Positions 25,819 through 48,621 are shown, counted from the stretch's first letter. The stretch: 64,000 nt of DNA from an uncultured Gammaproteobacteria bacterium (GCA_964532415.1 CAZHHN010000003.1:3777-67776); one strand, 5' to 3'. Program-made: numbers and translations. Notes: generated from the letters alone by a model not told the origin.

Positions 25819-28800
25819 CTACGGGCAGGCCGGCGGACCGATTGGAGTTGTCATATCCACGGAAACTTGGTTCCCCGTCAGAGCGGCATAGTACACCCGG
25901 ACGTTGTCGATCAGGCCCCAGAACATGAATCCCGACGAGTCGCGTCCGATATTGAAGGCCGTGCCGGCGGCCGGTTCCGCGAACGACGCCGGAATGACGG
26001 TCGTTTCGCCCGTCATCGTGCCGTTACTCAGAAGGCCGTCGACGTAGATATCGAGCCTCCTGGGCACGGACGTCCCGTCGTAGACGCAGGTGACATGATG
26101 CGATTCGCCCAGATGGCGAATGGCCACGCTGTTTATCTGGATCGTGCCGCTGTTGCCCAACAGCAGCTCGCAGGCGTAATGCGGCTGGGTCGGATCGTGC
26201 CCGACGTCCGGGCTGGTCTTGATGCGCCACCCCTTCGTACTCGTCGCCCGCGCGGCAATCACCCCGTCCTCGCCGCCGGCCGGATTCGTCGTCGCATTGG
26301 TCCATGCGCTCAATGTCAGTTTCGACCGGTTCGTCGAGGTCGGGAAGGTATTGCTTTGAACGCTGTCCTTCTTGCCGTCCCGGAACCTCAGCGCCTTGCC
26401 GAACGAGGAACCGGCCGGCGACGACGTGACCCACTGTGCACCGTTGATCGTGCCGTTGTGATGGCACGTACTGTCGGCCGCGACGCTGCCGCTGCCGGCA
26501 TCGAAGGCGTAGGCCGCTTCCGCAGCCGGAAGCGTCACGACTTCGCAGGCGTCGCCGATGCCGTTGCCGTTCGAATCCTGTTGGCCGGGATTCGGGACCG
26601 TCGGACAGTTGTCCACACAGTTTGGTACGCCATCTCCGTCCCCATCCGTATCCGCTACCCCGCAACCACACGTACCTGGCGCCGTCTTGTTGGGATCGCT
26701 GGCGCAGGCGTCATGACAGTCGGCCGTACCATCGCCGTCAGTATCCGTATCGGCCACACCGCAGCCACACTGGCCTGGTGCAGTCTTATTCGGATCCACA
26801 GGGCAGGCGTCATGACAATTCGGCGTCCCGTCATTGTCACTGTCCGTATCCGCCACGCCGCAACCGCACTGACCGGGAACGGTCTTCGCGGGGTCGGCGG
26901 GACAGGCATCAATGCAATCGGGGAATCCGTCGCCATCGCCGTCGAGATCGGCCGTGCCGCAGCCGCAAACGCCTGGAGCGATCTTGAATGGATCGAGCGG
27001 GCAGGTATCATGGCAATCCGCAGTCCCATCGCCATCCGTATCGACATCGGAAACGCCGCAGCCGCATTGGCCCGGCACGGTCTTAGCCGGATCGATTGGA
27101 CACGCGTCGATGCAATTCGGAAATCCATCGCCATCCGTATCGGTATCCGCTACGCCGCAACCACACGTGCCTGGAGCCGTCTTATTGGGATCGCTGGCGC
27201 AGGCGTCATGACAGTCGGCCGTACCGTCGCCGTCAGTATCCGTATCGGCCACACCGCAGCCACACTGGCCTGGTGCAGTCTTATTCGGATCGGTGGCACA
27301 CGCATCGTGGCAATCGGGAGTCCCATCGCCATCGCCGTCGGCATCCGAAACGTCGCAGCCGCAGACGCCAGGAACCGTCTTGCCCGGATCTGTGTCGCAC
27401 TCGTCATTGCAGTCCGCGGTTCCGTCCGCATCCGTATCGACATCGGAAACGCCGCAGCCACATTGGCCCGCGCTGACCGACTTGGCCGGATCGAGCGGAC
27501 AGGCATCGACCCCATCCCTGACGCCATCGCCGTCGCTGTCGGCGGTATAGAGGCCATCCTTCACCAAGCAAACCTGTGCCGGCGTGAGCGCGACTCTGAA
27601 GAATGACATATCCTGCAGCTGGCTGGCCGGTCCGGTCGTAAAGACCATGCCGTTCAGGTTCGTGACGTTGGCGGCGACATGCACGAGCGATGCCACCTGG
27701 ACGCAATCAAGGTAGAGACGAAGCGTTCCGTCGGCTTCGCGGACGGCGGCGACATGCTTCCAGCCGGCACCGACGAGCGTCGGGACGGTGGCATGCACTT
27801 CATCCGTGCCCGCCAAGCCTGCCAAGAAACCGATGTCGGTCCCAGATGCACCCAGGCTGATCTTGATGCTGTTCCCCAACGGAAGGAGGCCGGTCTTGGA
27901 AAACCAGTCCCGCCCGTTGGACGTTCCGACATTGGCGCGAAAGGCGATCGAGAAAGCTCCCTGACCGACATGGTTTTCGCGCCGATCCGGAATGCCGGGC
28001 GGCCCGACGACGGTCGTCCAAGTGGGACTGCCCGAAACCATCGAACCGGCCGCGCCGGTGAAACCGGGAGAACCCGGTCCCCACGGGCTACCCGGCAAGG
28101 CGGCGCCGTTCGGTCCCAGAGAGGAACCGGTGGGCGTATCCCGATCATGCAGGACGTTCGTGGTGTTCCCACTTGACGCTTCGTCGAGCCGCCAACGATT
28201 GACCAAGCCATCGATGCCCGGCCGTTCGATCTGGCAGACGGAGTTGCATCCGTCGCCGTCCACGAGATTACCATCGTCGCACTCCTCGGAAGCGCCGATG
28301 CTGGTCGCTGTGACGACACCATCGCCGCATTGGTTCATGGTCGAAAGCCGGCACATACCATGTTCGGCCGACGTCCAGATGTCATCGATCTTTGCAACCG
28401 TCAGCGCGCGGCCGACGGTTGGTTCGTCGATATCGATGCCGGGACTCGAACGGCGGTTGCAGGCGAGGCTGTCGACGTCCGATGCTTGCGTATTGGACTG
28501 GTACTCGACCAGGTCGGCGTGGGCATCCACCGCATTGTCGACATACACGTCAACCGGACCGGCTGCGTTCCCGTTGACCATGCCCAGCTTGTTGGGCAGG
28601 TTCAGAACCACGAAGTGCCATGCGCCGTCGGCGACATTGGTCGCGCCCTCGACGGTGACGACCGGTACCGAGTTGACCCGGTAGACCAGGTGACCGGCCG
28701 CGTTGACATAGAACTCGAAGTGCCGATTGGCACCGTGGAATTCCATGATGCTTTGGTCTCCGGTACCTCCCGGCATCCGCCGAACCCAAGCCATCAACGA

Positions 28801-29133
28801 GCAATCGCTCGTATTGGCACAGGTGGCGGAATCGCCTCCGGCGGCAAGTGCGTAGTTACGGCCATCGAAGTGGAATGCTTGGATGGCCTTGCCGGCGACG
28901 TAATCGCCGCCGTCATAGACCAGGTCCATCGATCCACTCGAGTGCCCGGGGAAACCGTCGCCGGTCCACCAGACCTTGGTACCGAGCGGCACCGTCGCGC
29001 AGGAACCGGCCAAGTATGTATTGGTGATGCCGGGCGCCGGAGCGGTGCCGACGGAAGCGTCCGGGGCTTCGGCCGATCCGGGCCCGACGTCTCCCGCACA
29101 GGCCATGGCGCCCAAGGCGAAGGCGAAAGCCAT
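25819..29133 (-). CDS. giant secreted lipoprotein: LamG/ConA-like domain, Myxococcus-type Cys-rich repeat, ~9 thrombospondin type-3 Ca-binding repeats, C-terminal LamG-like domain
   Basis: Start at MAFAFALGAMAC (lipobox-like). QCGDGVVTATSIGASEECDDGNLVDGDGCNSVC repeat. Repeated DxDxDGxxDCxDACxxDPxKTxPGxCGCGVxD units ending in CVDNCPTVPNPGQQDSNGNGIGDACE. Confidence 0.75.
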   Translation of the reverse strand: MAFAFALGAMACAGDVGPGSAEAPDASVGTAPAPGITNTYLAGSCATVPLGTKVWWTGDGFPGHSSGSMDLVYDGGDYVAGKAIQAFHFDGRNYALAAGGDSATCANTSDCSLMAWVRRMPGGTGDQSIMEFHGANRHFEFYVNAAGHLVYRVNSVPVVTVEGATNVADGAWHFVVLNLPNKLGMVNGNAAGPVDVYVDNAVDAHADLVEYQSNTQASDVDSLACNRRSSPGIDIDEPTVGRALTVAKIDDIWTSAEHGMCRLSTMNQCGDGVVTATSIGASEECDDGNLVDGDGCNSVCQIERPGIDGLVNRWRLDEASSGNTTNVLHDRDTPTGSSLGPNGAALPGSPWGPGSPGFTGAAGSMVSGSPTWTTVVGPPGIPDRRENHVGQGAFSIAFRANVGTSNGRDWFSKTGLLPLGNSIKISLGASGTDIGFLAGLAGTDEVHATVPTLVGAGWKHVAAVREADGTLRLYLDCVQVASLVHVAANVTNLNGMVFTTGPASQLQDMSFFRVALTPAQVCLVKDGLYTADSDGDGVRDGVDACPLDPAKSVSAGQCGCGVSDVDTDADGTADCNDECDTDPGKTVPGVCGCDVSDADGDGDGTPDCHDACATDPNKTAPGQCGCGVADTDTDGDGTADCHDACASDPNKTAPGTCGCGVADTDTDGDGFPNCIDACPIDPAKTVPGQCGCGVSDVDTDGDGTADCHDTCPLDPFKIAPGVCGCGTADLDGDGDGFPDCIDACPADPAKTVPGQCGCGVADTDSDNDGTPNCHDACPVDPNKTAPGQCGCGVADTDTDGDGTADCHDACASDPNKTAPGTCGCGVADTDGDGDGVPNCVDNCPTVPNPGQQDSNGNGIGDACEVVTLPAAEAAYAFDAGSGSVAADSTCHHNGTINGAQWVTSSPAGSSFGKALRFRDGKKDSVQSNTFPTSTNRSKLTLSAWTNATTNPAGGEDGVIAARATSTKGWRIKTSPDVGHDPTQPHYACELLLGNSGTIQINSVAIRHLGESHHVTCVYDGTSVPRRLDIYVDGLLSNGTMTGETTVIPASFAEPAAGTAFNIGRDSSGFMFWGLIDNVRVYYAALTGNQVSVDMTTPIGPPACP
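26590..27550. repeat. intragenic tandem DNA repeats (~114-nt units) encoding the TSP3 array
   Basis: Near-identical blocks, e.g. 26690-26800 vs 27170-27290 (ggcgcaggcgtcatgacagtcggccgtacc...cacactggcctggtgcagtcttattcggatc). Confidence 0.7.
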
Positions 29134-29391
29134 CGCCGTCAGGCATGGACGTAATAATCGCTTGCAGTTTCGCAGATGTAACACGAGAATCTCCTTTTTC
29201 TTGCGACGTTCCTGGGGAATACGACGAGAGATAAGCCAGACGATGTCAATGTACGGTGCAGCTTTGCCAGAAGGGTGTTTCGCACCCTTATTGCCTCCTG
29301 GCGACATGAAGTCCCGCGAACCTGAAGCCCGCGGGACGTTCAAAAAATACGCTGATTCGGACGGCGCGTCAAGCGGTCGTGGATGGGTCGC

Positions 29392-29685
29392 TCAAACTGT
29401 TTTGGTGGCCGTGCCGATGCTGTCCGAAACGGTGATCGAGACGGTCGAATCGGGCTTCACGTCCACGCGCGCATAGATGTCCCACGGATAGAAGGTGAAA
29501 GTCTTCGATCCGGTGAACGAACCCGACCAGTAGGGCGGAATGGCGACGCCATACCGGCGATATTTGATCCGGACGGACGGGTTCGCGGCGGTCAATGTCA
29601 TCGTCCAGCTGACGCCGATCGCGACACGCCAATAGGCGTTGGTCCACGTTCCTCCTGCGGCCATACAGAAGCTTGCGTGAGTCAA
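29392..29685 (-). CDS. small hypothetical protein (97 aa), possibly secreted
   Basis: ORF with high GC3 and W/Y-rich composition between two minus-strand genes. No family recognised. Confidence 0.3.
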   Translation of the reverse strand: MTHASFCMAAGGTWTNAYWRVAIGVSWTMTLTAANPSVRIKYRRYGVAIPPYWSGSFTGSKTFTFYPWDIYARVDVKPDSTVSITVSDSIGTATKTV

Positions 29686-29703
29686 TTCAGGGAGCCTCGA
29701 AGT

Positions 29704-30558
29704 TCAACCGGCAATCTCAGAGGGAGCGGGTTGCCACCAAGGCAACGAATTCCCGCTCGACAAAGCGACGACTTCCTGCGGGCTCTTCGGCAAAAACCAA
29801 TCCCGCAACTTCAGAGGGCGTCCGATCACGACCAAGAGGGCGAGCGGAGCGGCGATGTTGCCGAATCGCTCCACGAACTCCCAGACCGGCTCACTGACCA
29901 ACAGGCGGGCGAACGGATCGAAACACAGGAAAATAAGCGCGAGCAGGACCGGACCCCGGGCCGGCCGGAGCAGAATGATGGCTCCGAGCGCCATTTCAAT
30001 CCAGCCGAAGGTCTTGATCATATGATAGGCATCGACGAAGGCATGGTCGAAGCCGTAGGCGGCCATGTAGGTGTACCACAGCTTTTTGGCAACGATGGCA
30101 CCATAGGCCCCGTGCCCGAGAAAATGGACGGCGGTTCCGAGCACCAGGCACCAGGAAATGAAGCGCAATCTCTTTGACTTATCGATCGCCGTTTTCAGAT
30201 AGAAGGGGCTCGGGAATTGCATGAACAGGAACGCCAACGGGACGATCCAGTTCGGAAACCGCTCGAAGAATTCGGCCCAGCCCTCGCCGGCGAGCGGACG
30301 AAGCAAGGCGGTCCAAAACCCCCAGCTGACCATGTAATACAAGGCGGGCCGCGAAGGCCTGAGAAGGATGGAGATGGCGATGCTGACATCGAAAATGCCG
30401 ATGGCACGCATGAGCGGCCAGGCAATGGCCGGCGTGATGCCGACGGCCGCAAAATACGGAAGCCAGCCGACTTTTCCTCCGATCACCCCGAACATGCCGT
30501 GCCCGATGAAGATACCCGCGGTCCCGATCCGAAGGATCCAATGAAGGGTTTTGTGCAT
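29704..30558 (-). CDS. polytopic membrane protein with internally duplicated DoxX-like halves
   Basis: 284 aa, ~8 TM helices. Repeated (I/L)GTAxxFxGHGxxG motif (RIGTAGIFIGHGMFGV / VLGTAVHFLGHGAYGA). Confidence 0.45.
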   Translation of the reverse strand: MHKTLHWILRIGTAGIFIGHGMFGVIGGKVGWLPYFAAVGITPAIAWPLMRAIGIFDVSIAISILLRPSRPALYYMVSWGFWTALLRPLAGEGWAEFFERFPNWIVPLAFLFMQFPSPFYLKTAIDKSKRLRFISWCLVLGTAVHFLGHGAYGAIVAKKLWYTYMAAYGFDHAFVDAYHMIKTFGWIEMALGAIILLRPARGPVLLALIFLCFDPFARLLVSEPVWEFVERFGNIAAPLALLVVIGRPLKLRDWFLPKSPQEVVALSSGNSLPWWQPAPSEIAG

Positions 30559-30650
30559 AGTATCTTCATGATACTACATACGCGCGCAAATGCATAAAGA
30601 CGCCCGGATCGGGTTAATCTTACAATATTCCCTGGTCACAAACCGCGTCT

Positions 30651-30686
30651 ATGGAAAATCCCCCAGCGCAAGGCTGGAGGATTTTC
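30651..30686. repeat. perfect nested inverted repeat (15-bp stem hairpin) abutting direct repeat L
   Basis: GGAAAATCC-CCCAGC-gcaag-GCTGG-a-GGATTTTCC. No flanking T-run. Confidence 0.6.
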
Positions 30687-30761
30687 CATGGCGGCCCTTG
30701 GCGTACGAACTTCGAACCTTCTTTACGGCCAATAGAGTCTTTGTACCGGCCTTTGCCTAGC
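30682..30761. repeat. direct repeat L (~80 bp) flanking the copper cassette
   Basis: ttccatggcggcccttggcGtaCgaacttcgaaccttctttacggccaaTagAgtctttgtaccGGcctttgcctagc. ~92% identical to 35026-35105. Confidence 0.8.
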
Positions 30762-30772
30762 CGTTTATGGCG

Positions 30773-31162
30773 TTATCCCTGTACGTCTAAGGCAAACCGA
30801 TACATCCCCATCCCGCAGGTTCCTTGGAGTGACCCCTCTTGGAGTGTCCCGAGCGCGATATCAGTCGTGCCGGTGGGCGGAAGCATCTTGTCCACACCGA
30901 GGCTCGGAATGCGGACTTGCGACGAGCAGTCATACGTGGCATTCGTCTCGAACCTCAAGACGGTCGGCATGCCCGCTTTCACCGTGCTCGTTCCCGGCTG
31001 GTAGCCGCCTTTCACCTTGATGCGCACGATCTGTGTTGCATCGACGACCGACACGTTCGTTCCGGTCGGTGCAGTGACGGCGGGCTGGGACGGTCCGCCA
31101 CGGAAAAGGACGAAAGCGCCAATGACGATGACTGCCGCAGCGAGAATCGTAGTTGGTTTCAT
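30773..31162 (-). CDS. cupredoxin-like (Cupredoxin_1/EfeO-N-like) secreted protein, putative Cu-binding
   Basis: 129 aa. Signal/TM anchor, then VKGGYQPGTSTVKAGMPTVLRFETNATYDCSSQ...GTCGMGMY, a beta-sandwich cupredoxin-like pattern with Cys/Met ligand candidates. Last gene of the cop operon. Confidence 0.5.
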   Translation of the reverse strand: MKPTTILAAAVIVIGAFVLFRGGPSQPAVTAPTGTNVSVVDATQIVRIKVKGGYQPGTSTVKAGMPTVLRFETNATYDCSSQVRIPSLGVDKMLPPTGTTDIALGTLQEGSLQGTCGMGMYRFALDVQG

Positions 31163-31166
31163 GGGG

Positions 31167-32189
31167 TTAGATGTTGAAGAAGGGAGGGATGTAACCGGCC
31201 GCGACGAGGGCGTTCAGGATAGTGAACAGGGCGAATAGGATCACGATGATTCCGGCCGTCTTGAAGAAGACGCCCTTGTTGCGGCTTTTCTCGACGCTGA
31301 ACGAGCTGAAGCTGATGAGCGCGAGGACCGGGAACGTCCCAAGCGCGAACGCCAGCATCGTCAGGCCGCCTTTCAGAAAGCTGCCGGTCGTGAGGGCATA
31401 GAGCTGCATCGACTGCGTGAAACCGCACGGCAGGAAGAACGTGGCGACGCCGACCAAGAGCGGCGTGAGCGTGTGGTTGAGCTTCGAGATGCCGAACGCA
31501 TGCTTGGAGAAAGCCCTGGGCATCGCGGGCTGGAACCTCTTGGTCCAATCGAAGACGTCCAGCAGATTGATGCCGAGGATGAACATGACGATGCCGACGA
31601 TGACGCCCAAGACGAGAGTGGCGGAAGCGTTCAGCCGGAACGCCGAGCCCGCCACGCCGATTGCTCCCCCGAGCACGAAGAACGAGACGATCCGCCCGGC
31701 GTGGAACATCATCTGCGGCCTCGTCCTGTCGCCTTCCTTGGCGAAGGTAGCCGACATCGAGAGCACCAATCCGCCCACGACCGCCAGGCAGGTGGACAGC
31801 GAGGCGACGGCGCCGATCACGAAGGCGGTGCCATACGTAACATTGCTGCCCGTAATGAGGTTGACCAAGCCCGCCTTTTGGAGGGCGAGGAACCCGATCA
31901 TGATCGCCGCCGCGATCGGAAGTGCGTACTGGAACTCTCTCCAGTTCTTTTTCCGCAGCGGCTTGTCGACCGAGAGCGTGTAGCTGTATTTTTCAAGGAT
32001 GGCAGTCAGGTCGCCCGCAATCGCCACGGTTTCTTTGCCTCCAAAATCCCCGGTCACTTCGACGGTATGCGTCTTCAGGCTCGATTTCGCCCGGATAATA
32101 TACGGCACGTCCTGCAATTCGCTCTCGGTCATAAGAATGCAGGCGTCGCAGTGCATCCCCGTAATGTGGAAGAGAAGTGTCTTTTCCAT
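31167..32189 (-). CDS. HMA-domain (MxCxxC) fused to DsbD_2/TauE-like polytopic membrane protein
   Basis: N-terminal HITGMHCDACI heavy-metal-associated motif. ~8 TM helices with conserved Cys (LSTCLAV, FFLPCGF). Confidence 0.65.
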   Translation of the reverse strand: MEKTLLFHITGMHCDACILMTESELQDVPYIIRAKSSLKTHTVEVTGDFGGKETVAIAGDLTAILEKYSYTLSVDKPLRKKNWREFQYALPIAAAIMIGFLALQKAGLVNLITGSNVTYGTAFVIGAVASLSTCLAVVGGLVLSMSATFAKEGDRTRPQMMFHAGRIVSFFVLGGAIGVAGSAFRLNASATLVLGVIVGIVMFILGINLLDVFDWTKRFQPAMPRAFSKHAFGISKLNHTLTPLLVGVATFFLPCGFTQSMQLYALTTGSFLKGGLTMLAFALGTFPVLALISFSSFSVEKSRNKGVFFKTAGIIVILFALFTILNALVAAGYIPPFFNI

Positions 32190-32192
32190 ACG

Positions 32193-34460
32193 TCATAGCT
32201 TCTTCGTCTTCAGCCGGAGCGAATTGCCGACGACCGAAAAACTGGAGAAAGCCATCGCCAGCCCCGCGAAGACAGGGCTCAGCAGCCAGCCGAAGATCGG
32301 ATAGAACAGCCCGGCCGCGAGCGGGATACCCACCGTGTTATAGATGAAGGCCCAGAACAGGTTTTGCCTGATCCCGCGCATGGTCATCTTCGAGAGCCGG
32401 ATCGCTTTCACGAGGCGGGAGATGTCGCCGTGGAGCAGCGTGATCCCGGCCGATTCGATGGCGACGTCCGTGCCGGTCGCCATGGCGATGCCGACGTCTG
32501 CTTTGGCGAGCGCCGGAGCGTCGTTCACACCGTCTCCGGCCATGGCGACGACGCGACCGTCCGACTGCAAGCTCTTGATCTTGTCGAGCTTGCCCTCGGG
32601 CAGGACTTCCGCGACGATCTCGTCCACGCCCGCCTGTCTGCCGATGAACTCGGCCGTGTTTCTGTCGTCGCCGGTCAGCATGACGACCTTGATGCCAAGC
32701 GCGTGGAGGCTTGAGACGGCTTCCGCCGCCCCTTCCCGCAGCGCATCAGCAACCATGACGACCGCCAGTACGCCCCGCGCTGTCGCAAGCAGCACCGGCG
32801 TCTTACCTTCCGAGGTTTCTGCTTGAAGGCAGGCGGCGTCGAATCGCAGCTTGAGCGCTGTAATGAGCTTAGCATTGCCTGCGTAGTATTCAGTGCCGTT
32901 CACGGTTCCTTTCACGCCTTGACCCTTGATCGCCTCGAAACTATCGACGGGCAGAAGAGCAATCTTCTTGCCTTCGGCATACGCCTCGATCGCGTGCGCG
33001 ATGGGATGTTCCGATTTCTTCTCCAACGAGGCCAGAATCGCAACGAGCTCCCGCTCGTCCGTATCGACGAAGCGGCGAAGAGAGACGAGTTCCGGCTTGC
33101 CCTTGGTCAGGGTGCCCGTCTTGTCGATTACGACCGTATCGACCTCGTGCAGCCGTTCGAGCGTCGCCGCATCTTTAATAAGGATGCCTTCCTTCGCGCC
33201 CTTGCCGACGCCCACAATGATGGCCGTCGGCGTAGCGAGGCCGAGCGCGCACGGGCAGGCGATAACGAGCACGCCCACGAAGGAGACGAGGCCGTTCGAA
33301 AGCGCCTGCGAGAAGCCGAGGGGCTGCGTGCCGAAAACGAGCCAAGCGGCCAAGGTCACGAATGCCACGACAAGGACGCCCGGCACGAAAACGGCCGAAA
33401 TCCTGTCCGCAAGGGCCTGGATCGGCGCGCGGCTCCCTTGGGCTTCCTCCACCATCTTGATGATGCGCGAAAGCATCGTTTCCGCCCCGACTTTGGTTGC
33501 CTTGAACGTGAAGGAGCCGGTCGTATTCATGGTTCCCGAAACGACCGCATCTCCGGCCGATTTCTTCACGGGCATCGGCTCCCCTGTGACGACGGCCTCA
33601 TCCACGTAGGACGATCCTTCAACGACGGTGCCGTCGACGGGAAGGCGTCCTGCAGGTTTCACGACGATCAGATCGCCGTGCACGACCCGATCAACAGACA
33701 GTTCCTGCTCCTTGCCGTCACGGACGACGAGCGCGGTCTTCACCTGGAGGTTCAGCAGCTTCTCAATGGCGTCGCCGGTCCTGAGCTTCGAGCGGGCTTC
33801 AAGATACTTGCCGAGCGCGATGAAGGTGATGACGACGATCGTGACGTCGTAGTAGGTGTGCTCGACGTTCATGAAGGGCTTGAGCACATCCTCGAACGCC
33901 GACACGGCGAAACTGTAGAGATACGCAGCCGCGGTGCCGAGGCCGATCAGCGTATCCATGTTCGCCTTGCCATAGCGCAGGAAGCGGTACAGGCCGAGCA
34001 GATACGGTTTGCCGACGACGAAGAGGGTGTAGGTCGCCATCAGCGGGAGCAGGTGGTGAGAGAACTCGTCCCAAAGATACGGAATCGCCGGGACAGCGCC
34101 GAGCTGCGTGGCGATCTCCCAGCCCATGACGAAAACACTGAACGCGGCGAGCGGGATGATTGAAAGCACCTGGCCCCGCATTTCGGCGATCTCCGCGAGC
34201 TTCTCGTTTTTTGACTGGTTCGTACCTGCGTGTCTGGAGTGGTCCTCCGGCATCATCAATTTGTATCCGAGATGTTCGATGTGTTTCGAAAGCTGTTCCG
34301 GGCTGGTTTTCGAGGCGTCGAAAGCGAGCTTGGCGGTCTCGGTACCATAGTTCACCTCGGCCGAGACGACGCCTACCGTTTTCTTGAGCGTCTTTTCGAT
34401 GATGCCCGCGCAGGAAGCGCAGTGCATACCCTTGATCTTGTAGATTGTTGTTCCATCCAT
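32193..34460 (-). CDS. copA: copper-translocating P1B-type ATPase CopA
   Basis: N-terminal GMHCASC HMA. CPC (ACPCALGLATP). Phosphorylation DKTGTLT. HP and GDGVNDAPAL motifs. 755 aa. Confidence 0.92.
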   Translation of the reverse strand: MDGTTIYKIKGMHCASCAGIIEKTLKKTVGVVSAEVNYGTETAKLAFDASKTSPEQLSKHIEHLGYKLMMPEDHSRHAGTNQSKNEKLAEIAEMRGQVLSIIPLAAFSVFVMGWEIATQLGAVPAIPYLWDEFSHHLLPLMATYTLFVVGKPYLLGLYRFLRYGKANMDTLIGLGTAAAYLYSFAVSAFEDVLKPFMNVEHTYYDVTIVVITFIALGKYLEARSKLRTGDAIEKLLNLQVKTALVVRDGKEQELSVDRVVHGDLIVVKPAGRLPVDGTVVEGSSYVDEAVVTGEPMPVKKSAGDAVVSGTMNTTGSFTFKATKVGAETMLSRIIKMVEEAQGSRAPIQALADRISAVFVPGVLVVAFVTLAAWLVFGTQPLGFSQALSNGLVSFVGVLVIACPCALGLATPTAIIVGVGKGAKEGILIKDAATLERLHEVDTVVIDKTGTLTKGKPELVSLRRFVDTDERELVAILASLEKKSEHPIAHAIEAYAEGKKIALLPVDSFEAIKGQGVKGTVNGTEYYAGNAKLITALKLRFDAACLQAETSEGKTPVLLATARGVLAVVMVADALREGAAEAVSSLHALGIKVVMLTGDDRNTAEFIGRQAGVDEIVAEVLPEGKLDKIKSLQSDGRVVAMAGDGVNDAPALAKADVGIAMATGTDVAIESAGITLLHGDISRLVKAIRLSKMTMRGIRQNLFWAFIYNTVGIPLAAGLFYPIFGWLLSPVFAGLAMAFSSFSVVGNSLRLKTKKL

Positions 34461-34509
34461 ATGTTCAGGTAAATGAAAACCAAGCGGGGGCCAAAGCCGA
34501 CGCTTGGTT

Positions 34510-34884
34510 TCAATTACGCAAGATGATGGTGGAGAGATTTTGATGCAAAAGGAGTTTTCCTATGCCCGAACGCCAGCGAGGATGAACGCGCTCAACGCGA
34601 CCGACTTCCGCAAGCCGCTCGTGGAGAAAGAGGATGAGCAGCGCCAACACGAAAACGGCGAAGGGAAAAAGCGGCGCGGGACTTGAGGCCGGGATAGCGG
34701 AGAGGCAGTGGCTCAGGCATTCCATGCCAGACATGTCGCCGGGCATCGAATCGCAGACGGAGCCGATGCAGGTGCCGTGATCCGTGGCCATTCCAGAACC
34801 CATGCCGAAAAATGCCAGTCCCGCGAACGTCGTGACGAAGAGGACAAGCGAGGCGATCAGGAATGAAAGGAGGGTGCGGCGCAT
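34510..34884 (-). CDS. small membrane protein with Met/Cys/His-rich periplasmic segment (putative Cu-binding)
   Basis: 124 aa. TM, then GMGSGMATDHGTCIGSVCDSMPGDMSGMECLSHC, then TM. First gene of the cop operon. Confidence 0.45.
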   Translation of the reverse strand: MRRTLLSFLIASLVLFVTTFAGLAFFGMGSGMATDHGTCIGSVCDSMPGDMSGMECLSHCLSAIPASSPAPLFPFAVFVLALLILFLHERLAEVGRVERVHPRWRSGIGKLLLHQNLSTIILRN

Positions 34885-34912
34885 ACCAATTAGAACGATA
34901 GCACCGAAGATG

Positions 34913-34927
34913 TCTCTTGGAAAGAGA
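34913..34927. promoter_or_regulatory. palindrome TCTCTTggaAAGAGA upstream of the cop operon (candidate operator)
   Basis: Perfect 6-bp arms, 3-bp spacer, ~30-45 nt upstream of ATG 34884. Confidence 0.3.
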
Positions 34928-35025
34928 GACCAGTATTTCTGCTGCTCCCTCTGTGCACGCTGGCCTCAATACTTCGGCGCCACAAGCGTGACCTGAATGC
35001 AAAACGCCCAGGACTTGCCTGAGCG

Positions 35026-35105
35026 TTCCACATGGCGGCCCTTGGCTTATGAACTTCGAACCTTCTTTACGGCCAACAGGGTCTTTGTACCAACCTTTGC
35101 CTAGC
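35026..35105. repeat. direct repeat R (~80 bp) flanking the copper cassette
   Basis: Same sequence as 30682-30761 with 6 substitutions. Contains GGTTCGAAG and GGGCCGCCA (minus-strand sense), reminiscent of a tRNA T-loop and 3' end. Confidence 0.8.
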
Positions 35106-35174
35106 TCCGCCTCATACTTTGGCCATTCGGGTCTGCCGGTACGGAGTTGTAGCTGCAGGGCATTTGCGAGGATG

Positions 35175-36221
35175 TTAGAACTTGTGCGCTTCCAGCCATG
35201 CGAAAAGCTCAATCCAAACTTGGAGAAGCGCTGCCTTTTCTTTTTCTTCCCCCTTCTTCCATTCGCTCGCGCCCAAATCCAGCATGACGGTGTTCATCGC
35301 GAAGTTCAGCAGATTGAACCAATATTGCTGATCTTCGGAAGGATCACGACCAAGTACTCCCGTACTCCACAGATTTGTCCACTCTTCAATGCGCCGCACG
35401 ATGGAAGCCAGAGTAACATGCTCATCGCGGGTATGCATGATATCGACCCACATCGGAAAAGCGAGTTCATAGTGCCGTGGGCGATACGACCAATACAGAT
35501 TCGCAAGGAGGGTGAAGCCGTCGATTGTCTCGTCGTATTTGACGTCGAATCCCGAGAGATGCCCGTGGGTGAAGTGAATATCGCCTAGCTGGCATCGATC
35601 AAGAACGGCGAAGTAGCGTGACCGCAAATCCTCAACGATATACCTTTCGACATGTTGATTGGCTGACGCCGCGGCAATCTCCGAAAAGTGCGCGTGGGCT
35701 TCCCGATACCTTTCCTGCATTGTCCCCTTTGGCATCGGAAGCCACGGATCGGCCGGGAGCATGAGATCGAAGAACTCTTTGAGAAAATCGGCGTGACGTT
35801 CTTGCTCACGAGAAGTTGGTCGCTGACCCTCCCAGAGATTAGGAAGTCCTGACAGATCTTCAAAAATGATGAAACCGTACCCATCCTTTTCGTTCCATGC
35901 CTTGTCAATCAGCATTCCCGGCAGCCTAATACGCGCACTACGGTTGTGCTCGCTCACGTGTCGGATAATAAAACCTTCATCGAACGGCAACGGCCGAAGT
36001 TGAAGTTTTACCACCGCGCGAGTTTCGCCTTTCTGCGCTCGAACGATAAAACTCCCTACCTTTTGGCTGTCGTAATAGACGCCAGAAAAAAGACGGTTGT
36101 TGACGTCGGTTTTCCATCCATACTGCGATTCAATTTCGCTTAACGCGCGTGCCATCAACTCCTTGCCATCATTGGCAGAAAGCGCATTATCCGTAATTCT
36201 ATTGCCGTATTCCTTTGCCAT
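35175..36221 (-). CDS. phosphotransferase-family kinase (APH/choline-kinase-like fold)
   Basis: 348 aa. Brenner-like motif IHFTHGHLSGFDVKYD. Lower-GC codon usage than the surrounding core genes. Confidence 0.4.
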   Translation of the reverse strand: MAKEYGNRITDNALSANDGKELMARALSEIESQYGWKTDVNNRLFSGVYYDSQKVGSFIVRAQKGETRAVVKLQLRPLPFDEGFIIRHVSEHNRSARIRLPGMLIDKAWNEKDGYGFIIFEDLSGLPNLWEGQRPTSREQERHADFLKEFFDLMLPADPWLPMPKGTMQERYREAHAHFSEIAAASANQHVERYIVEDLRSRYFAVLDRCQLGDIHFTHGHLSGFDVKYDETIDGFTLLANLYWSYRPRHYELAFPMWVDIMHTRDEHVTLASIVRRIEEWTNLWSTGVLGRDPSEDQQYWFNLLNFAMNTVMLDLGASEWKKGEEKEKAALLQVWIELFAWLEAHKF

Positions 36222-36313
36222 TTTTACATGGTGGCATAGTCCGCTTCCTTATGAAAGGACGGCGATTCCAAGCATCCCGACAAAAACACCTCTCGTTTGA
36301 GAGGTGTTCTTGC

Positions 36314-36391
36314 TGGCGGGCCGGACGGGATTCGAACCCGCGATTTCCTCCGTGACAGGGAGGCGCGATAACCGGGCTTCGCTACCGGCCC
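36314..36391 (-). tRNA. tRNA-Asp (anticodon GTC)
   Basis: Minus-strand sequence GGGCCGGTAGCGAAGCCCGGTTATCGCGCCTCCCTGTCACGGAGGAAATCGCGGGTTCGAATCCCGTCCGGCCCGCCA. 7-bp acceptor, anticodon loop CTGTCAC, T-loop GGTTCGAATCC, encoded CCA. Confidence 0.85.
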
Positions 36392-36451
36392 AGATTGGAC
36401 TGCCCCAATGTAGCAGAAGAGCCCGGGCCTGGCAAGACCGGCCGGCCGGAT

Positions 36452-37327
36452 TCATGCGGTGAAGATTTCCCCGGGAAACCCGGGGGATTTCCGGACGCTG
36501 CGATCGGGGAAAAGCAGCAGGTAGTCGAAATCGAAATGCGGCAGCAGCGCTTCGGGCGCCGTGAAATACAGAGCGGTCGCCATGGCGTCGGCCAAGAGCG
36601 TCGTCCCGGCCACCGCCCAGACGGCTGCCAAATGCCGAGGCGATTCAAGCGTCCGCGGATCCATGATGTGGTGGAAGCGGCTCCAAGCGCGGCGATTGCC
36701 GGCCGATCCGCAAATGCTGCGGTTGGCGATCCCGGCCACGCCGATCGCCTTGGACGCGTCGGCCGGATCTTCCAAGCCGACCCGAAGCTCCGCGCCGGAC
36801 GGATCGCGTTCGCGGATGTCCCCGCCCGCGTCGATGCAATAAGATCGCACGCCCCGCGCCTCCAAAAGTTCGCCGATAAGATCGATCAGATACCCCTTGC
36901 CGAGCGCGCCGAAATCGAGCAGAGCCGGCTGCCTGAGCCGAAGTTTCGGATACGTATATTCAAGCGCATCCTCCCAGCGCGGAGGCGTTTTCAACCGGCC
37001 CGGCTGCAGCGAATACTCCGCATCGTACCCGGCATCCGAAAGTAGCTGCCCGATGAGCGGCGTCATGGCGCCGTTCGTCAAATCGTACAGCCGTCTGTAG
37101 AGATCGAGCATCGGCTTGGCGTCCGCGGGCAGATCGAATTCCTCCGCGCGCCGCGCCATCTCGGCCACGAGCGAATCTTCCCGGAAACGGGAGTAGTGCC
37201 GGTCGAAAACGCCGATGCGATCCGAAACGAGACGAAGGAGAAGCTCCTTCGTCTCGTCGGCCAGCGTTTCCCGGATGTCGATCTGCCATCGCGTGCCGAT
37301 GGCTTCGAAGGCCAGGGACGTCCCCAT
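36452..37327 (-). CDS. apbE: FAD:protein FMN transferase ApbE
   Basis: ApbE family signature regions (GAMTPLIGQ...FGALGKGYLIDL...IDAGGDI...SICGSAGN...HHIMDPRT). Start at MGTSLAFEAIGTRWQ. Confidence 0.8.
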   Translation of the reverse strand: MGTSLAFEAIGTRWQIDIRETLADETKELLLRLVSDRIGVFDRHYSRFREDSLVAEMARRAEEFDLPADAKPMLDLYRRLYDLTNGAMTPLIGQLLSDAGYDAEYSLQPGRLKTPPRWEDALEYTYPKLRLRQPALLDFGALGKGYLIDLIGELLEARGVRSYCIDAGGDIRERDPSGAELRVGLEDPADASKAIGVAGIANRSICGSAGNRRAWSRFHHIMDPRTLESPRHLAAVWAVAGTTLLADAMATALYFTAPEALLPHFDFDYLLLFPDRSVRKSPGFPGEIFTA

Positions 37328-37331
37328 GCCT

Positions 37332-37853
37332 TCAGGCCCTGGCCTGCGCCTTGATCTTGGCGACGGCGTCGTTGAAACCCATCGGGGTGCGCGAGGAGCC
37401 GGAGACCTTTCCCAGATTGAGTTCGTCGAGGTTCTTGCCGATGACAAGCGGCTTGTAGTTATCGGCGAACATCTTCATGAAGTTGCCGGAGATGGCGACT
37501 TTCGGGGTTCCCACGAACTGGCTGTCGACGACGACACCGTTCTTGAGCGTCAGCGTGACGGTCACCTCCTCGGAGCCGCTGTGATAGGTGTAGTCCCCCT
37601 TGGCGGTGTAGGTGCCGTCCCTGTAGGACGATTTCCCGTCGGGCGGCATGGTGGCGGGAGTCGGCGGCTCGGGCGGCGGCGTGGACGGCGCGGGAGTCGG
37701 CACGACCTGAACGTCGACCTTGGCGCCGGTATCGGTTTGAACGCTCACGGGCGGCTGCTGGGTGCAGCCGGCGCCGAGCGCGATCAGCGTAGCGGCGGCT
37801 CCGATCAAGCCAGTCATGAACAAGGAGGCACGTTTCGTTTCGTGTTGCGGCAT
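37332..37853 (-). CDS. FMN-binding-domain lipoprotein (extracytoplasmic flavoprotein, ApbE substrate candidate)
   Basis: Signal peptide with lipobox LGAGC. Pro/Thr-rich linker. C-terminal FMN_bind-like segment (KVSGSSRTPMGFNDAVAKIKAQ) with Ser/Thr flavinylation candidates. Confidence 0.6.
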   Translation of the reverse strand: MPQHETKRASLFMTGLIGAAATLIALGAGCTQQPPVSVQTDTGAKVDVQVVPTPAPSTPPPEPPTPATMPPDGKSSYRDGTYTAKGDYTYHSGSEEVTVTLTLKNGVVVDSQFVGTPKVAISGNFMKMFADNYKPLVIGKNLDELNLGKVSGSSRTPMGFNDAVAKIKAQARA

Positions 37854-42496: not shown

Positions 42497-43741
42497 TTAC
42501 GGAGCCGCCGGCAATTCTTCCAACAGGACCTGCGCGGTGTGGCGCGCCTTGTCGCGCAGGTAGACGACGGTGACGCCCTGTCCGGCCCGCTTCTTGGCCA
42601 CAAGGCTGGAGAGCGCATGTGCGTCGTCGATCGGCACGCCGTCGACCTCGAGCAGCACGTCACCGGCTTTGAGACCGGCCTTGTCGGCCGGGGAATTCCT
42701 GACGACGGCCGGACCGCCATCACCGGCAGCGATCAGCGCGCCGGCCGAAACGTCCAGACCGCCCGCCTTGGCCGACTCGGGCGTCAGCATCACGTAGCGC
42801 ACGCCCAGCCACGGTCGGACGATGCGTCCCTGGGATTTGACGCTGTCAATCACGACCTTGGCGGCATCGATCGGGATGGCGAAACCGATCGACTGGCCGG
42901 AGCGGTTGACCGCCGTGTTCATTCCGATCACCTTGCCGTTCAAATCGATGAGCGGTCCTCCGGAATTGCCGGGATTGATGGCAGCATCGGTCTGGAGCGC
43001 TTCTTCGAGCACCTCGGACGTTCCGGCGCCGTCGCCGGCCACCACGTGGCGGTTGATGCCGGAGATGACGCCTTTCGTGACGGTGTTGCGGTATTCGGAG
43101 AGCGCGTTGCCGATGGCGATGACCGTCTCTCCCGCCTCGAGCGTGTCGGAATCGCCGAGCGTCGGCACGGGAAGATTGGTGGCATCGATCCTGAGGACGG
43201 CGACATCGAGGATCGAATCGGTCGCGAGGACTTTGGCGGCATACGATTTGCCGTCGTTCATCACCACCTGATACTCGGCGTCGGCATCGGCCACCACGTG
43301 GCGGTTGGTCAGGATCAACCCGTCCGAAGAGATGACGAAGCCCGTGCCGCCGCCGATGACTTCCTTCTGGCCCGGTTGGGCCGGCTGGCGCTGCAAATTT
43401 GGCGGCGCGATGCCAAAATACTCCTCGAACGGGAAGGCGCCCGTGGCGTTGTAGAGCCTTGAAACGTCCTTGGAAATGACGACGCTGACGACCGACGGCG
43501 AGACCTTGCGGACGGCCTCGATCACCTGGCGATCGTCCTGTGAAACGGGCCGCGGGGCCGTGGCCGCATCCGGCTGGCCGCGCCACGGATAATATTTTTG
43601 ATTGAGCGAGATCGCGAACAGCACGCCGAAGGCGGCGCCCGAAAAGCTTCCGAGCAGGAAACTTACGAGAATGGCATACGCGAGCGGTTTGCGCGTTTTT
43701 CCGGCAACGGCGACGGGCAGGTCCTCCATAGCGGCGTTCAA
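42497..43741 (-). CDS. htrA: HtrA/DegP-family serine protease with PDZ domain
   Basis: Catalytic triad context (TNRHVV, DVAVLRI, GNSGGPL). C-terminal PDZ. N-terminal TM. TTG 43741 overlapping nrdR stop, or ATG 43729. Confidence 0.88.
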   Translation of the reverse strand: MNAAMEDLPVAVAGKTRKPLAYAILVSFLLGSFSGAAFGVLFAISLNQKYYPWRGQPDAATAPRPVSQDDRQVIEAVRKVSPSVVSVVISKDVSRLYNATGAFPFEEYFGIAPPNLQRQPAQPGQKEVIGGGTGFVISSDGLILTNRHVVADADAEYQVVMNDGKSYAAKVLATDSILDVAVLRIDATNLPVPTLGDSDTLEAGETVIAIGNALSEYRNTVTKGVISGINRHVVAGDGAGTSEVLEEALQTDAAINPGNSGGPLIDLNGKVIGMNTAVNRSGQSIGFAIPIDAAKVVIDSVKSQGRIVRPWLGVRYVMLTPESAKAGGLDVSAGALIAAGDGGPAVVRNSPADKAGLKAGDVLLEVDGVPIDDAHALSSLVAKKRAGQGVTVVYLRDKARHTAQVLLEELPAAP

Positions 43742-44253
43742 AGTTTTTTCTTGGCAAGGCGTTCCCTGCGACGCGGGCGCGCCACAGGCTTGGCCGGCCG
43801 GGTGGAGGACGTGAGATGCGCCAGCGCTTCCTGAAACGTCCTGACGTCCTCAAAGGCGCGGTAGACCGAAGCGAAGCGGATATAGGCCACCGTATCGACG
43901 TGTTTCAGGCGGTTCATGACGATCTCGCCGACCTCGCGGGTGGTCACCTCGCTTTTGCGGCGCTTCTGCAGGTCGCGTTCGACCTGATTGACCAGATCCT
44001 TGAAAGCCTCGGCGGTGATCGGACGCTTTTGCAGCGCCTTGCGCAGTCCGACTTCAAGCTTCTCGCGCATATAGGCCTCACGGCGTCCATCGCGCTTGAC
44101 GACCGTCAGGTCAAGGATTTCGCTCTCCTCCACCGTCGAAAAACGGAAATGGCATTTCAGGCACTGGCGGCGCCGGCGGATGCTCATCCCTCCCTGCGAA
44201 AGGCGCGAGTCGACGACCTTGGTGTCCTTATGGTTGCAGGCGGCGCACCTCAC
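43738..44253 (-). CDS. nrdR: transcriptional repressor NrdR
   Basis: Zn-ribbon [17 protein letters not shown]...CLKC plus ATP-cone. GTG start overlapping the ftsZ stop. Confidence 0.88.
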
Positions 44254-47227: not shown

Positions 47228-47663
47228 AGCCGAGCCGTTTCAAGACGCGGGACTGGAGCGCGAACATCGCCTTTTCCTCCCGCGGAGAGACATGATCGTA
47301 GCCGAGCAGATGAAGCGTGCCATGGACGAGCATCAGGGCGATCTCGCGACGGACGGGCTTGGCGGCCGCCTTGGCCTGACGGGTCACCTGTGGCATCGAG
47401 ATTACGAGATCCCCCAGAAGGTTCGGACTCTCATCGCCCACCCAGACGCCGTCGTTGCCGAACGACAGGACGTCCGTCGTTGCAGGCTTGCCGCGCCAGG
47501 CGGCGTTCAGACGCGTCATTTCGGCGTCGCCGACGAAGACGACACCGACTTCTTCGACGCTGTGCACCTTTACGGCCCTCAGCGTCGCCACAACGACGCG
47601 CTTTACCCACGCATCGCCGACCGGCGCCTCGACGCGGCGGACGACGGATACGCCGGTGTTCAT
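47220..47663 (-). CDS. ybeY: rRNA maturation endoribonuclease YbeY
   Basis: HGTLHLLGYDH metal-binding motif. Confidence 0.9.
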   Translation of the reverse strand: MNTGVSVVRRVEAPVGDAWVKRVVVATLRAVKVHSVEEVGVVFVGDAEMTRLNAAWRGKPATTDVLSFGNDGVWVGDESPNLLGDLVISMPQVTRQAKAAAKPVRREIALMLVHGTLHLLGYDHVSPREEKAMFALQSRVLKRLGYA

Positions 47664-48607
47664 GGCTTTGCGCCAAAGCTGTTCAGGACCATCGTGAAGG
47701 TTGTGGAGAACAGCGTTTTATAGGTGGGATTGGCCTGAAGCTGCGGTCCGATCGCGATCACATACATCTTTCCGCCCAACGGAATATCGGCGGACAGGCC
47801 GTCTTGGGCAAGAACGCCTTCCAAGCCGGATTTGGTCATGAAGGTTTGGATCGGCAGGCCCGCAAGCTGGGAATGGCCGCTGAGATAGAAGTCGGAAGCG
47901 GACTTCCCTCCCGGGTTATCCTGTACCTGCACCGACAGCACCTCCTGGCCCTGGTTCGAGACGAACGCCGTCTGCCCGGGCAGCTGCGTCCATTGGGTCG
48001 GGATCAGGATCTGCCACTGTCCATCGGCCGGACTGAACGTTTTGACCAAGCCGGCTTCGACCAGTTTGGTGGGTTTGAAGCCGGCTGGGTTGTAGAGATT
48101 CGTGACTTCGAGCGCATCCGAATAGCCGTCGGAGTCGGAGTCGGCGATGGACGGCGAAGTGCCGTAGAGCGCTTCCTCGGCGTTCGTCAGGCCGTCGGCA
48201 TCGTTATCGGCTTCCGGTCCCGGGGTCGGAGGCGTCTCGGTTGTCGTCGTGGCCGATGCCGGTTCGGGCACGGAGCCCGGTGCAGACGGCGGTGCTTCGG
48301 GCTGCGGCGCAGGCAATGTCACGGACGGGGCAGGAGGCACGGGCGTGGTTTTCGGCAGCAGGAAACGCCAGGCGATGAAGCCAAGGCCGACCAAAAGCAG
48401 CAGCGCGAAGACGGGGATCAGCAGCCATTTCCTGCTTTGGGCGGTTTGCGGATGCGGAGCCGGTCCGGCCACAGCGGACACGGGCGGCGATCCTTCCTTC
48501 GGGAGATTCGCCCGCGCCGCCAAGCCGTAAAACTGCTCGGGGATCGTGTAGATCACCGGCTCCTGCGTTTTGATCGGCGCGGTCGTTTGTACGGGCTGTT
48601 CCGACAT
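47660..48607 (-). CDS. bitopic membrane protein with thrombospondin type-3-like Ca-binding repeats (paralog 1 of 3)
   Basis: N-terminal TM (WLLIPVFALLLLVGLGFIAW). Pro-rich linker. DNDADGLTNAEE / DSDSDGYSD motifs. C-terminal beta-rich domain. Confidence 0.6.
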   Translation of the reverse strand: MSEQPVQTTAPIKTQEPVIYTIPEQFYGLAARANLPKEGSPPVSAVAGPAPHPQTAQSRKWLLIPVFALLLLVGLGFIAWRFLLPKTTPVPPAPSVTLPAPQPEAPPSAPGSVPEPASATTTTETPPTPGPEADNDADGLTNAEEALYGTSPSIADSDSDGYSDALEVTNLYNPAGFKPTKLVEAGLVKTFSPADGQWQILIPTQWTQLPGQTAFVSNQGQEVLSVQVQDNPGGKSASDFYLSGHSQLAGLPIQTFMTKSGLEGVLAQDGLSADIPLGGKMYVIAIGPQLQANPTYKTLFSTTFTMVLNSFGAKP

Positions 48608-48621
48608 GCAGCAATCGTGAT

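Follow-up and report, generated by a model that had tools for sequence, protein, structure and literature searches.

What are the two direct repeats that bracket the copper-resistance operon of this uncultured bacterium, and how did they come to lie on both sides of it? The locus is part of a 64,000-nucleotide stretch of DNA (GCA_964532415.1, CAZHHN010000003.1:3777-67776), referred to in its entirety as the window, in which four minus-strand genes (the copper cassette) are flanked by one repeat copy on each side (A and B), 1.2 kb from a tRNA-Asp gene. A preliminary description had regarded the repeats as attL/attR-like remnants of a tRNA 3' end bounding a horizontally acquired islet. The comparisons made here, which draw on three copies of the repeated module (A, B, and C, the last from a relative) and on one relative that possesses the cassette (contig L007), suggest rather that the repeat codes for protein, or did so for as long as its copies were diverging, and that it reads on the strand opposite the copper operon.

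Coding signature of the repeat pair

Within positions 29000-37500 of the window, where repeats were searched for, the direct repeats described earlier as about 80 bp long and about 92% identical proved to be real and to flank the cassette, their length being 75 nt and their starts lying at 30687 and 35031; the copies match at 69 of 75 positions and are spaced 4344 nt apart:

30687-30761, plus strand: repeat copy A, with the coding module at 30689-30760 (WRPLAYELRTFFTANRVFVPAFA followed by TAG); longest enclosing open reading frame (ORF) 30590-30760, 56 aa
35031-35105, plus strand: repeat copy B, with the coding module at 35033-35104 (WRPLAYELRTFFTANRVFVPTFA followed by TAG); longest enclosing ORF 34997-35104, 35 aa

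The longest run of exact identity between the copies is 26 nt, and homology of A to B through the adjoining hairpins is marginal (p ~0.055). Counted along the plus strand of the repeat, the six differences occur at positions 17, 20, 47, 50, 62, and 63 (G/T, C/T, T/C, A/G, G/A, and G/A, respectively), and five of them share a single codon phase, the third position of a frame that is read in both copies as WRPLAYELRTFFTANRVFVP[A/T]FA before a stop codon; the same five are synonymous. Searching all of 1.84 billion representative proteins by HMMER with the 35-aa ORF of copy B gave one real match, a 58-aa protein (P0123; E 4.8e-7), which is a third copy of the module, copy C, located on a 743-nt contig (L020) from the same assembly as L007 (GCA_013558295.1) and ending in WRPLAYELRTYFTANRVFVPVFA before its stop codon. 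Between A, B, and C, homology begins exactly at a Trp codon and ends exactly at the TAG stop, the sequence on either side of C being unrelated, and the module thus delimited comprises 23 codons plus TAG on the plus strand, with the consensus WRPLAYELRT[F/Y]FTANRVFVP[A/T/V]FA.

The pattern of substitution among the three copies is that of a protein-coding small ORF, with an open conserved frame and synonymous-biased changes. Third codon positions account for 11 of the 15 variable columns, and an arginine is kept through two changes (AGA to CGG). Summed over the three pairs, amino-acid differences number 5 in frame +3; four of the remaining frames have 22-27, and the sixth (-3) has 9 and is interrupted by stop codons. 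When the same substitutions were placed at random 20,000 times, the result observed for frame +3 was never equalled. Nei-Gojobori estimates of synonymous (dS) and nonsynonymous (dN) divergence were dS 0.36 and dN 0.02 between A and B and dS 0.85 and dN 0.04 between A and C, for a dN/dS of ~0.05. As judged by these substitutions, the module has evolved under strong purifying selection at the level of the peptide, which is not expected of a non-coding tRNA remnant on the opposite strand.

All three copies have the TTG at codon 4 and the TAG stop without variation, and the module may be a complete micro-gene, perhaps one that begins at this TTG and encodes a predicted micro-peptide of ~20 aa; alternatively, recombination may target a gene of which the module is the conserved 3' end. 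In-frame ATGs are found 33, 12, and 35 codons upstream of the module in A, B, and C, respectively, in unrelated sequence, and no Shine-Dalgarno sequence is evident at the TTG. No larger protein with the module as its C-terminus was present among the 1.84 billion representatives, which are clusters at 50% identity, so that a divergent C-terminal tail could escape the HMMER scan. The module peptide had no family or structure matches, tblastn against plasmids and phages yielded none, and a literature search for a precedent found nothing relevant. A word-index protein search with the 56-aa ORF of copy A was likewise without a match, a weak negative for very short proteins given that it missed P0123, which is in the collection and has eleven 5-residue words in common with the query. 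The micro-ORF, being without a homologue in current family libraries, is a candidate for small-protein or ribosome-profiling work.

Boundaries and history of the copper module

The repeats are set among the following hairpins and genes:

30651-30689, minus strand: hairpin hpA (by folding), 17-bp stem, about -36 kcal/mol with its extension, beginning within the CCATGG end of copy A
34997-35033, minus strand: hairpin hpB (by folding), 16-bp stem, -29 kcal/mol, beginning at the CCATG end of copy B
36280-36313, minus strand: native tRNA-Asp terminator (ACACCTCTC..GAGAGGTGTTTTT), the same terminator that follows tRNA-Asp in a more distant relative (L013)
36314-36391, minus strand: tRNA-Asp(GTC) with encoded CCA, 1.2 kb from copy B
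34510-34884, minus strand: 124-aa Met/Cys-rich membrane protein, first gene of the cassette, without a family in family searches
32193-34460, minus strand: CopA-type copper-exporting P1B ATPase, 755 aa (TIGR01511)
31167-32189, minus strand: membrane protein with HMA and DsbD_2 domain matches, 340 aa
30773-31162, minus strand: cupredoxin-like protein by domain match, 129 aa, last gene of the cassette
35175-36221, minus strand: 348-aa ORF between tRNA-Asp and copy B, GC 0.507, no known family
29704-30558, minus strand: 284-aa membrane protein with a weak DoxX_3 profile match, first gene past copy A and hpA

Copy A lies 11 nt past the stop codon of the cupredoxin gene, with which it is convergent, and copy B lies 69 nt past the stop codon of the 348-aa ORF; on the minus strand, each copy is then directly followed by a strong hairpin, hpA and hpB differing in sequence. 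The usual terminators of the window are long hairpins with an A-tract and a T-tract, and we therefore read hpA as the terminator of the copper operon and hpB as that of the 348-aa ORF. On the plus sense, hpB reaches only -16 kcal/mol because of G-U pairs.

The limits of the copper module can be set independently of the repeats through L007, a 5.8-kb contig (JACCDN010506671.1) that bears the only homologue of the 124-aa protein in an index of 5.8 billion proteins (68% identity). It contains the same four genes, with amino-acid identities of 68, 88, 87, and 85%, and its nucleotide identity to the window is 85% over 34885-30772 and 93% over hpB and the preceding GCCGCCA (35041-34996), the two stretches being separated by the promoter region of the 124-aa gene, where homology is lost. 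On one side the homology extends as far as copy B and on the other to the stop codon of the cupredoxin gene (11 nt short of copy A), with nothing beyond, and the flanks of the module are wholly different in the two lineages. Given these sharp ends and different contexts, the copper module is a discrete unit, and the window repeats stand 0 nt and 11 nt from its ends. By a rough estimate over ~55 intergenic gaps, both copies would fall by chance in the two gaps that bound the module about once in 1,500 times.

At its left end, which is hpB, the module is preceded in L007 by the 3' half of a genuine tRNA-Asp (...GGTTCGAATCCCGTCTGGCCCGCCA, directly followed by TGTGGAACGC...), and copy B ends at the exact nucleotide at which that tRNA-Asp ends. 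The hairpin after tRNA-Asp in L007 is 93% identical to hpB. A different direct repeat (55 nt, 80% identity; the 1-95 region and 5315-5369) brackets the L007 cassette together with a 223-aa gene, and combines the final 8 nt of tRNA-Asp with hairpin hpB, the right copy being in decay with mismatches in its stem. This bracketing looks like the product of a separate Campbell-type insertion at tRNA-Asp, and it likewise suggests such an insertion as the origin of the arrangement in the window.

Copy C is found on L020 between a gene that we call gene X and a homologue of the 223-aa gene of L007 (84% amino-acid identity over 38 residues). Judged by eye, L007 and L020 are collinear from ~125 nt beyond C and unrelated before that point, which places C near a synteny breakpoint as well. 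The order is common to all three cases, namely cargo gene or genes, module, terminator, and next gene, and in each the copy occupies a gap between same-strand genes and converges on the stop codon of the upstream gene at 11-69 nt.

Our leading explanation, to which we attach roughly even confidence, is that the copper module was inserted or exchanged long ago by a Campbell-type event at a conserved mini-ORF, the repeats being paralogous copies of the coding module and not fragments of a tRNA. Incoming DNA would have consisted of the copper genes and one module copy, and would have recombined with a resident copy located between the 348-aa ORF and hpA, leaving one copy on each side of the copper module; we infer both the recombination mechanism and which copy was the resident one. 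The differences between A and B would then mostly represent divergence of donor from recipient that predates the event, and their being mostly synonymous fits divergence between orthologous sequences in the two. The event would be old, the dS between A and B (0.36) being of the same order as that between the cassettes of the window and L007 (0.41-0.62), and an old event fits the native-looking, ameliorated codon usage of the copper genes. The 284-aa gene is probably resident flank. The recombination may have been homologous or site-specific, the best hint of a specific core being the junction of ...GGSCCGCCA with TG and hpB that copy B has in common with the tRNA-Asp of L007. As 69/75 direct repeats, the copies could still recombine homologously, so that the cassette is lost or amplified in tandem, a predisposition of modest practical consequence.

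Several observations weigh against this history. No start codon or N-terminal sequence is conserved among the three copies, and the in-frame sequence upstream of B and C, ATGs included, is terminator hairpin, so that the peptide is no more than a predicted one. Only three copies of the module are known. Third positions are variable at 2/9 of codons 2-10 and at 9/13 of the later codons (one-sided p ~0.04); codons 1-10 are the half that resembles a tRNA tail on the opposite strand, and their low variability hints at an added constraint at the nucleotide level that the proposed history leaves unexplained. The coincidence of the module end ...GGGCCGCCA with the tRNA end ...GGCCCGCCA of L007, each directly followed by TG and hpB, would have to represent microhomology or the use of a putative pseudo-site, and no recombinase was found among the families listed for the window ORFs. 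The L007 cassette is without the 75-nt module, with no significant remnant of it at the right junction or after the cupredoxin gene. Finally, no excised or empty-site variants were found among 15 Logan contigs from the same population, every one of which matches the window at 100% identity.

If the insertion at a mini-ORF is true, recombination brought in or exchanged a copper operon of an uncultured bacterium at a very short conserved coding sequence, and not at a tRNA gene. The neighboring ApbE gene has its best protein matches in Patescibacteria/Saccharimonadia-like organisms (names as given by the sources), and going by these names the bacterium itself appears to be of that kind. Such organisms have small genomes in which classical mobile elements are thought to be scarce, and the cassette has no accompanying recombinase among the families listed for the window.

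The locus behaves most like islands or cassettes that are bounded by direct repeats of their target, and among known systems the closest analogy would be integration at the 3' end of a coding sequence, as in staphylococcal cassette chromosome mec (SCCmec). SCCmec integrates into the 3' end of rlmH/orfX and duplicates it, and SCC-like cassettes lacking ccr, as well as tandem composites, exist. The likeness is that the repeats consist of last codons and a stop, that the copies differ mostly synonymously, and that cassettes without a recombinase are so delimited. Unlike SCCmec, the locus shows no full-length target gene, the conserved part is 23 codons long with unrelated sequence upstream in the three copies, no Ccr-like or other recombinase was found among the listed families, and the repeat is much longer than the sequence of the SCC integration site.

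Alternative origins of the repeat

It is possible, though on the unlikely side, that A and B are two independent functional micro-genes (~20-30 aa; regulatory, toxic, or arrest-type, or an mRNA antisense to the 3' untranslated region (UTR) of the operon) that owe their positions to local duplication or to a preference for terminator gaps. The strong purifying selection, the intactness of both window copies, the invariant TTG and TAG, the recurrence of one micro-context in three copies with a terminator hairpin on the other side, and the absence of a larger protein with this C-terminus among the representatives would all be expected of such genes. Their start context and N-terminus, however, are not conserved, and hpA would terminate or block plus-strand transcripts just ahead of the module; no promoter-like site was detected on the plus strand ahead of either copy. 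Moreover, a coincidence of the copies with both of the independently set module boundaries is improbable by chance, and no family, structure, or literature precedent for such micro-genes was found.

We give a small chance to the origin proposed first, in which the repeats are tRNA 3' remnants of a tyrosine-integrase island at tRNA-Asp whose integrase acted in trans or was lost. As had been described, both copies in the minus-strand sense contain GGTTCGAAG and end in ...GGGCCGCCA, followed by TG, the fuller minus-strand reading being GCTAGGCAAAGG..GGTTCGAAGTTC..GCCAAGGGCCGCCA before that TG. On this strand the module runs 73 nt to a terminal CCA, with GGTTCGAA ~30 nt from the end, all of these features being invariant in the three copies, and the last 9 nt of tRNA-Asp match copy B at 8/9 (GGCCCGCCA vs GGGCCGCCA). 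In L007, the same hairpin and cassette follow a real tRNA-Asp CCA at the nucleotide at which copy B ends, and the 55-nt bracketing repeat there includes the tRNA tail. The DNA downstream of tRNA-Asp is also variable among relatives.

The resemblance of the repeats to a tRNA T-loop and 3' end did not, however, withstand closer comparison. ARAGORN, at thresholds of 70-100%, detected no tRNA or transfer-messenger RNA (tmRNA) in A, B, or C and found the control tRNA-Asp, and Rfam gave no match at E up to 1 on 10 kb or up to 10 on 171 nt. When set against shuffled sequences, alignment to tRNA-Asp was unconvincing (for A, p 0.02 globally and 0.1 locally; for B, p 0.13 globally and 0.4 locally), and all that the repeats have in common with tRNA-Asp is GGTTCGAA and 8 of the last 9 nt. 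No cloverleaf or covarying helix was found in the three copies, and we therefore rejected a tRNA or tmRNA identity for the repeat. To this must be added the codon-phased, amino-acid-preserving substitutions on the opposite strand, the native-like codon usage of the copper genes, and the want of an integrase among the listed families. The tRNA-Asp of the window is itself intact, and the variable DNA begins after its terminator, outside the tRNA; L013, whose ApbE is 67% identical, has the same terminator, which indicates that tRNA-Asp and its terminator are native in the window and that no insertion into the tRNA took place here. The intact native terminator also led us to reject a split integrase of the type found in Sulfolobus spindle-shaped viruses (SSV), or any integration at tRNA-Asp with the 348-aa ORF as cargo.

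Compared with tRNA-integrase islands in general, the locus is alike in having metal-resistance cargo near a tRNA, bracketed by direct repeats, and variable DNA downstream of the tRNA; in L007 only, the cassette also starts exactly at the tRNA CCA. It is unlike them in that the window repeats are not recognizable tRNA sequence and have a coding signature on the opposite strand, and in that an intact tRNA, with an intact terminator, lies 1.2 kb off. Four defining features of such islands (tRNA-derived repeats, an island abutting the tRNA, an integrase, and a foreign composition of the cargo) were not found in the window, the second of them being present in L007 for its different 55-nt repeat. 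The preliminary description had named relatives with the same genes but without repeats at this locus as evidence against it, and L007 has the four genes without the module. What stands of the islet as first proposed is that the repeats lie at the junctions of a relocatable module; the tRNA origin and the foreign composition do not. On the sequences compared here, an att-like or Campbell-type origin of the repeats seems reasonable and a link to tRNA-Asp not absurd. For genome scans, the lesson is that a tRNA-like look (GGTTCGAA...CCA) can mislead, the nature of the repeat having been revealed by the phase of six, and later fifteen, substitutions.

Another idea, which we advance as improbable, would combine both strands: the module might be a dual-coded recombination site, encoding a micro-peptide on one strand and mimicking a tRNA-Asp tail (GGTTCGAA...GGSCCGCCA) on the other, at which a host-encoded or trans-acting recombinase would shuffle cassettes devoid of recombinases (the copper operon, gene X, the 348-aa ORF), exchanging them between module copies and genuine tRNA-Asp genes in a Patescibacteria-like lineage. 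If true, reduced genomes of this sort would have a cassette system unlike any yet described for them.

The reading of the repeat as a minus-strand RNA structure that controls the copper operon and the 284-aa gene, be it a riboswitch-like leader with a variable terminator or a 3'-UTR element, is largely refuted and very unlikely. It would account for a conserved block followed by an overlapping terminator hairpin upstream of metal-related membrane-protein genes, for the absence of a regulator gene from the cassette, and for three A/B differences that retain a predicted helix via G-U pairs. That helix, however, loses 5/8 of its pairs in C, RNAalifold found 0 compensatory pairs (covariation term +0.12), the 75-nt block folds no better than shuffled sequences (z +0.09 and +1.48), Rfam is empty, and the variable columns have a 3-nt periodicity. 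L007, furthermore, has the same operon without the element. A riboswitch or attenuator leader was rejected on the same grounds (no compensatory pairs, a fold z near 0, and absence upstream of the operon in L007).

A dispersed element resembling repetitive extragenic palindromes (REP) or miniature inverted-repeat transposable elements (MITE), or a chance match unrelated to the cassette, is hardly credible: two same-population Logan contigs break inside copy B, which could hint at more genomic copies, but a 24-nt core of the repeat (with up to 3 mismatches) occurs at just 2 places in the 64 kb, both of them the known copies, with 0 expected, which excludes chance; blastn, tblastn, and nhmmer found no further copies in the window, none was present in the 1.7 kb outside the window start or in ~100 kb from relatives, a codon-degenerate pattern had 0 matches in one genome per GTDB species (this pattern was Phe-only, and C-type copies would escape it), the same pattern or an F/Y-tolerant version had 0 matches in JGI metagenomes and IMG/VR, and neither terminal inverted repeats nor target-site duplications were found at A, B, or C. 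The scarcity of copies also speaks against the multi-copy REP-like element that the preliminary description had envisaged as a possible refutation of its islet.

Comparison with other recombinase-less cassettes led to further rejections. Integrative mobile elements exploiting Xer (IMEX) and the pdif modules of Acinetobacter plasmids have no recombinase of their own and are moved by host Xer recombinases, and the copper module is like them in being a sharp-ended resistance module without a recombinase in varied contexts and with palindromes at its junctions. It differs in that hpA and hpB are strand-asymmetric intrinsic terminators with 16-17-bp stems that are typical here, and not 11-6-11 dif-like sites, and in that the repeated unit is a coding module rather than a palindrome; an Xer/dif-like site was rejected, the sequence pattern not fitting one. 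As with integron attC sites, a ~75-nt element and a hairpin whose structure is more conserved than its sequence come at the 3' side of each cargo unit, once after the 348-aa ORF and once after the copper operon, yet there are no R''/R' boxes (RYYYAAC...GTTRRRY) at A/hpA or B/hpB, no IntI or other integrase was found among the listed families, the element is not palindromic, and the cassette, four genes long, has a promoter region to itself, so that attC was rejected too. The template and variable repeats (TR/VR) of a diversity-generating retroelement (DGR) were rejected since the mismatches are not adenine-specific and 5/6 fall at codon position 3, and no RVT was among the listed families; a readthrough extension of the cupredoxin gene was rejected as its frame fits copy A and not B.

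Cassette genes and other features of the window

The four-gene minus-strand operon has the gene order and identities that had been described, including the 124-aa ORF without a family. Its ATPase scores 593.6 bits against TIGR01511, for which the cut-off is 397, and has the E1-E2_ATPase, Hydrolase, and HMA Pfam domains; with the ATPase core, an N-terminal HMA domain, and a score above the subfamily cut-off, it is a CopA-type P1B-1 copper ATPase. Like other copper-export operons with CopA P1B-ATPases, the cassette combines a CopA that bears an N-terminal HMA domain with metal-binding and redox accessory proteins; it is unlike them in its HMA-DsbD_2 fusion, its cupredoxin, and its orphan 124-aa Met/Cys-rich partner. 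No match to the CsoR, CopY, or CueR families was found in the cassette, in agreement with the lack of a regulator reported earlier. The same holds for the tRNA-Asp, whose position 1.2 kb away was confirmed, and for the lack of an integrase, no integrase or recombinase having been found among the families listed (25 of the 31 matched) for 40 other ORFs of the window or in the genes of the locus scanned individually.

The lower GC content that had been ascribed to the cassette and the neighboring kinase-like gene applies to the 348-aa ORF and the intergenic DNA, and not to the four copper genes. The latter have a GC content at third codon positions (GC3) of 0.70-0.84 (z -1.1 to +1.4) and codon adaptation index (CAI) z values of -1.8 to +0.4, within the range of 26 other genes of the window. 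The 348-aa ORF is the sole compositionally foreign gene of the region, with a GC of 0.507 against 0.635 (z -5.9) and a GC3 of 0.56 (z -3.5). We could not verify its earlier label as an aminoglycoside phosphotransferase (APH)-like kinase: searches of Pfam, NCBIfam, PHROGs, and PDB gave no match, and a single-sequence AlphaFold model (predicted local distance difference test, pLDDT, 39.7) was unusable.

Within the cassette, the 124-aa protein evolves much faster than the rest (dN 0.17 vs 0.065-0.074 between the window and L007), and the promoter and 5' UTR of its gene are not alignable between the two. In the same comparison hpB (34996-35041 vs 39-84 of L007) is 93% identical with unchanged stem arms, the coding regions being 85% identical, and its sequence seems to be constrained or recently exchanged. 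The best sigma-70-like promoter of the region is at 36407-36435 on the minus strand, just upstream of tRNA-Asp (TTGCCA, 17 nt, TACATT, with an extended TG).

Around the nearest ApbE homologues (67-70% identity) the gene order is rearranged, and the neighborhoods of relatives found through the 284-aa protein are rearranged or too distant; no close relative with the same flanks, such as could show an empty site, came to light. The ORF at 25819-29343 encodes a 1174-aa Laminin_G_3/TSP_3 surface protein with an internal 80-nt repeat (86%; 27034-27110 and ~27430-27510); several Logan contigs end at 27430, and a 42%-identical homologue of this protein is found downstream of tRNA-Asp in L013. An SmpB gene lies ~170-600 nt outside the window start (contig L021, 11761-12210), and ARAGORN found no tmRNA gene in the window or in L021. 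The longest ORFs at 13220-13735, 42846-43853, and 47390-48673 have a GC3 of 0.43-0.57 (z -3.3 to -5.8), and would be either wrong-frame calls in real genes or other foreign DNA. On the minus strand, a giant ORF of 3179 aa occupies 49713-59252, and families of the Big_5, SpaA_2, sortase, and type IV secretion system (T4SS)-pilin types occur elsewhere in the window and just beyond it, which suggests that the giant ORF is set in a region rich in surface proteins.

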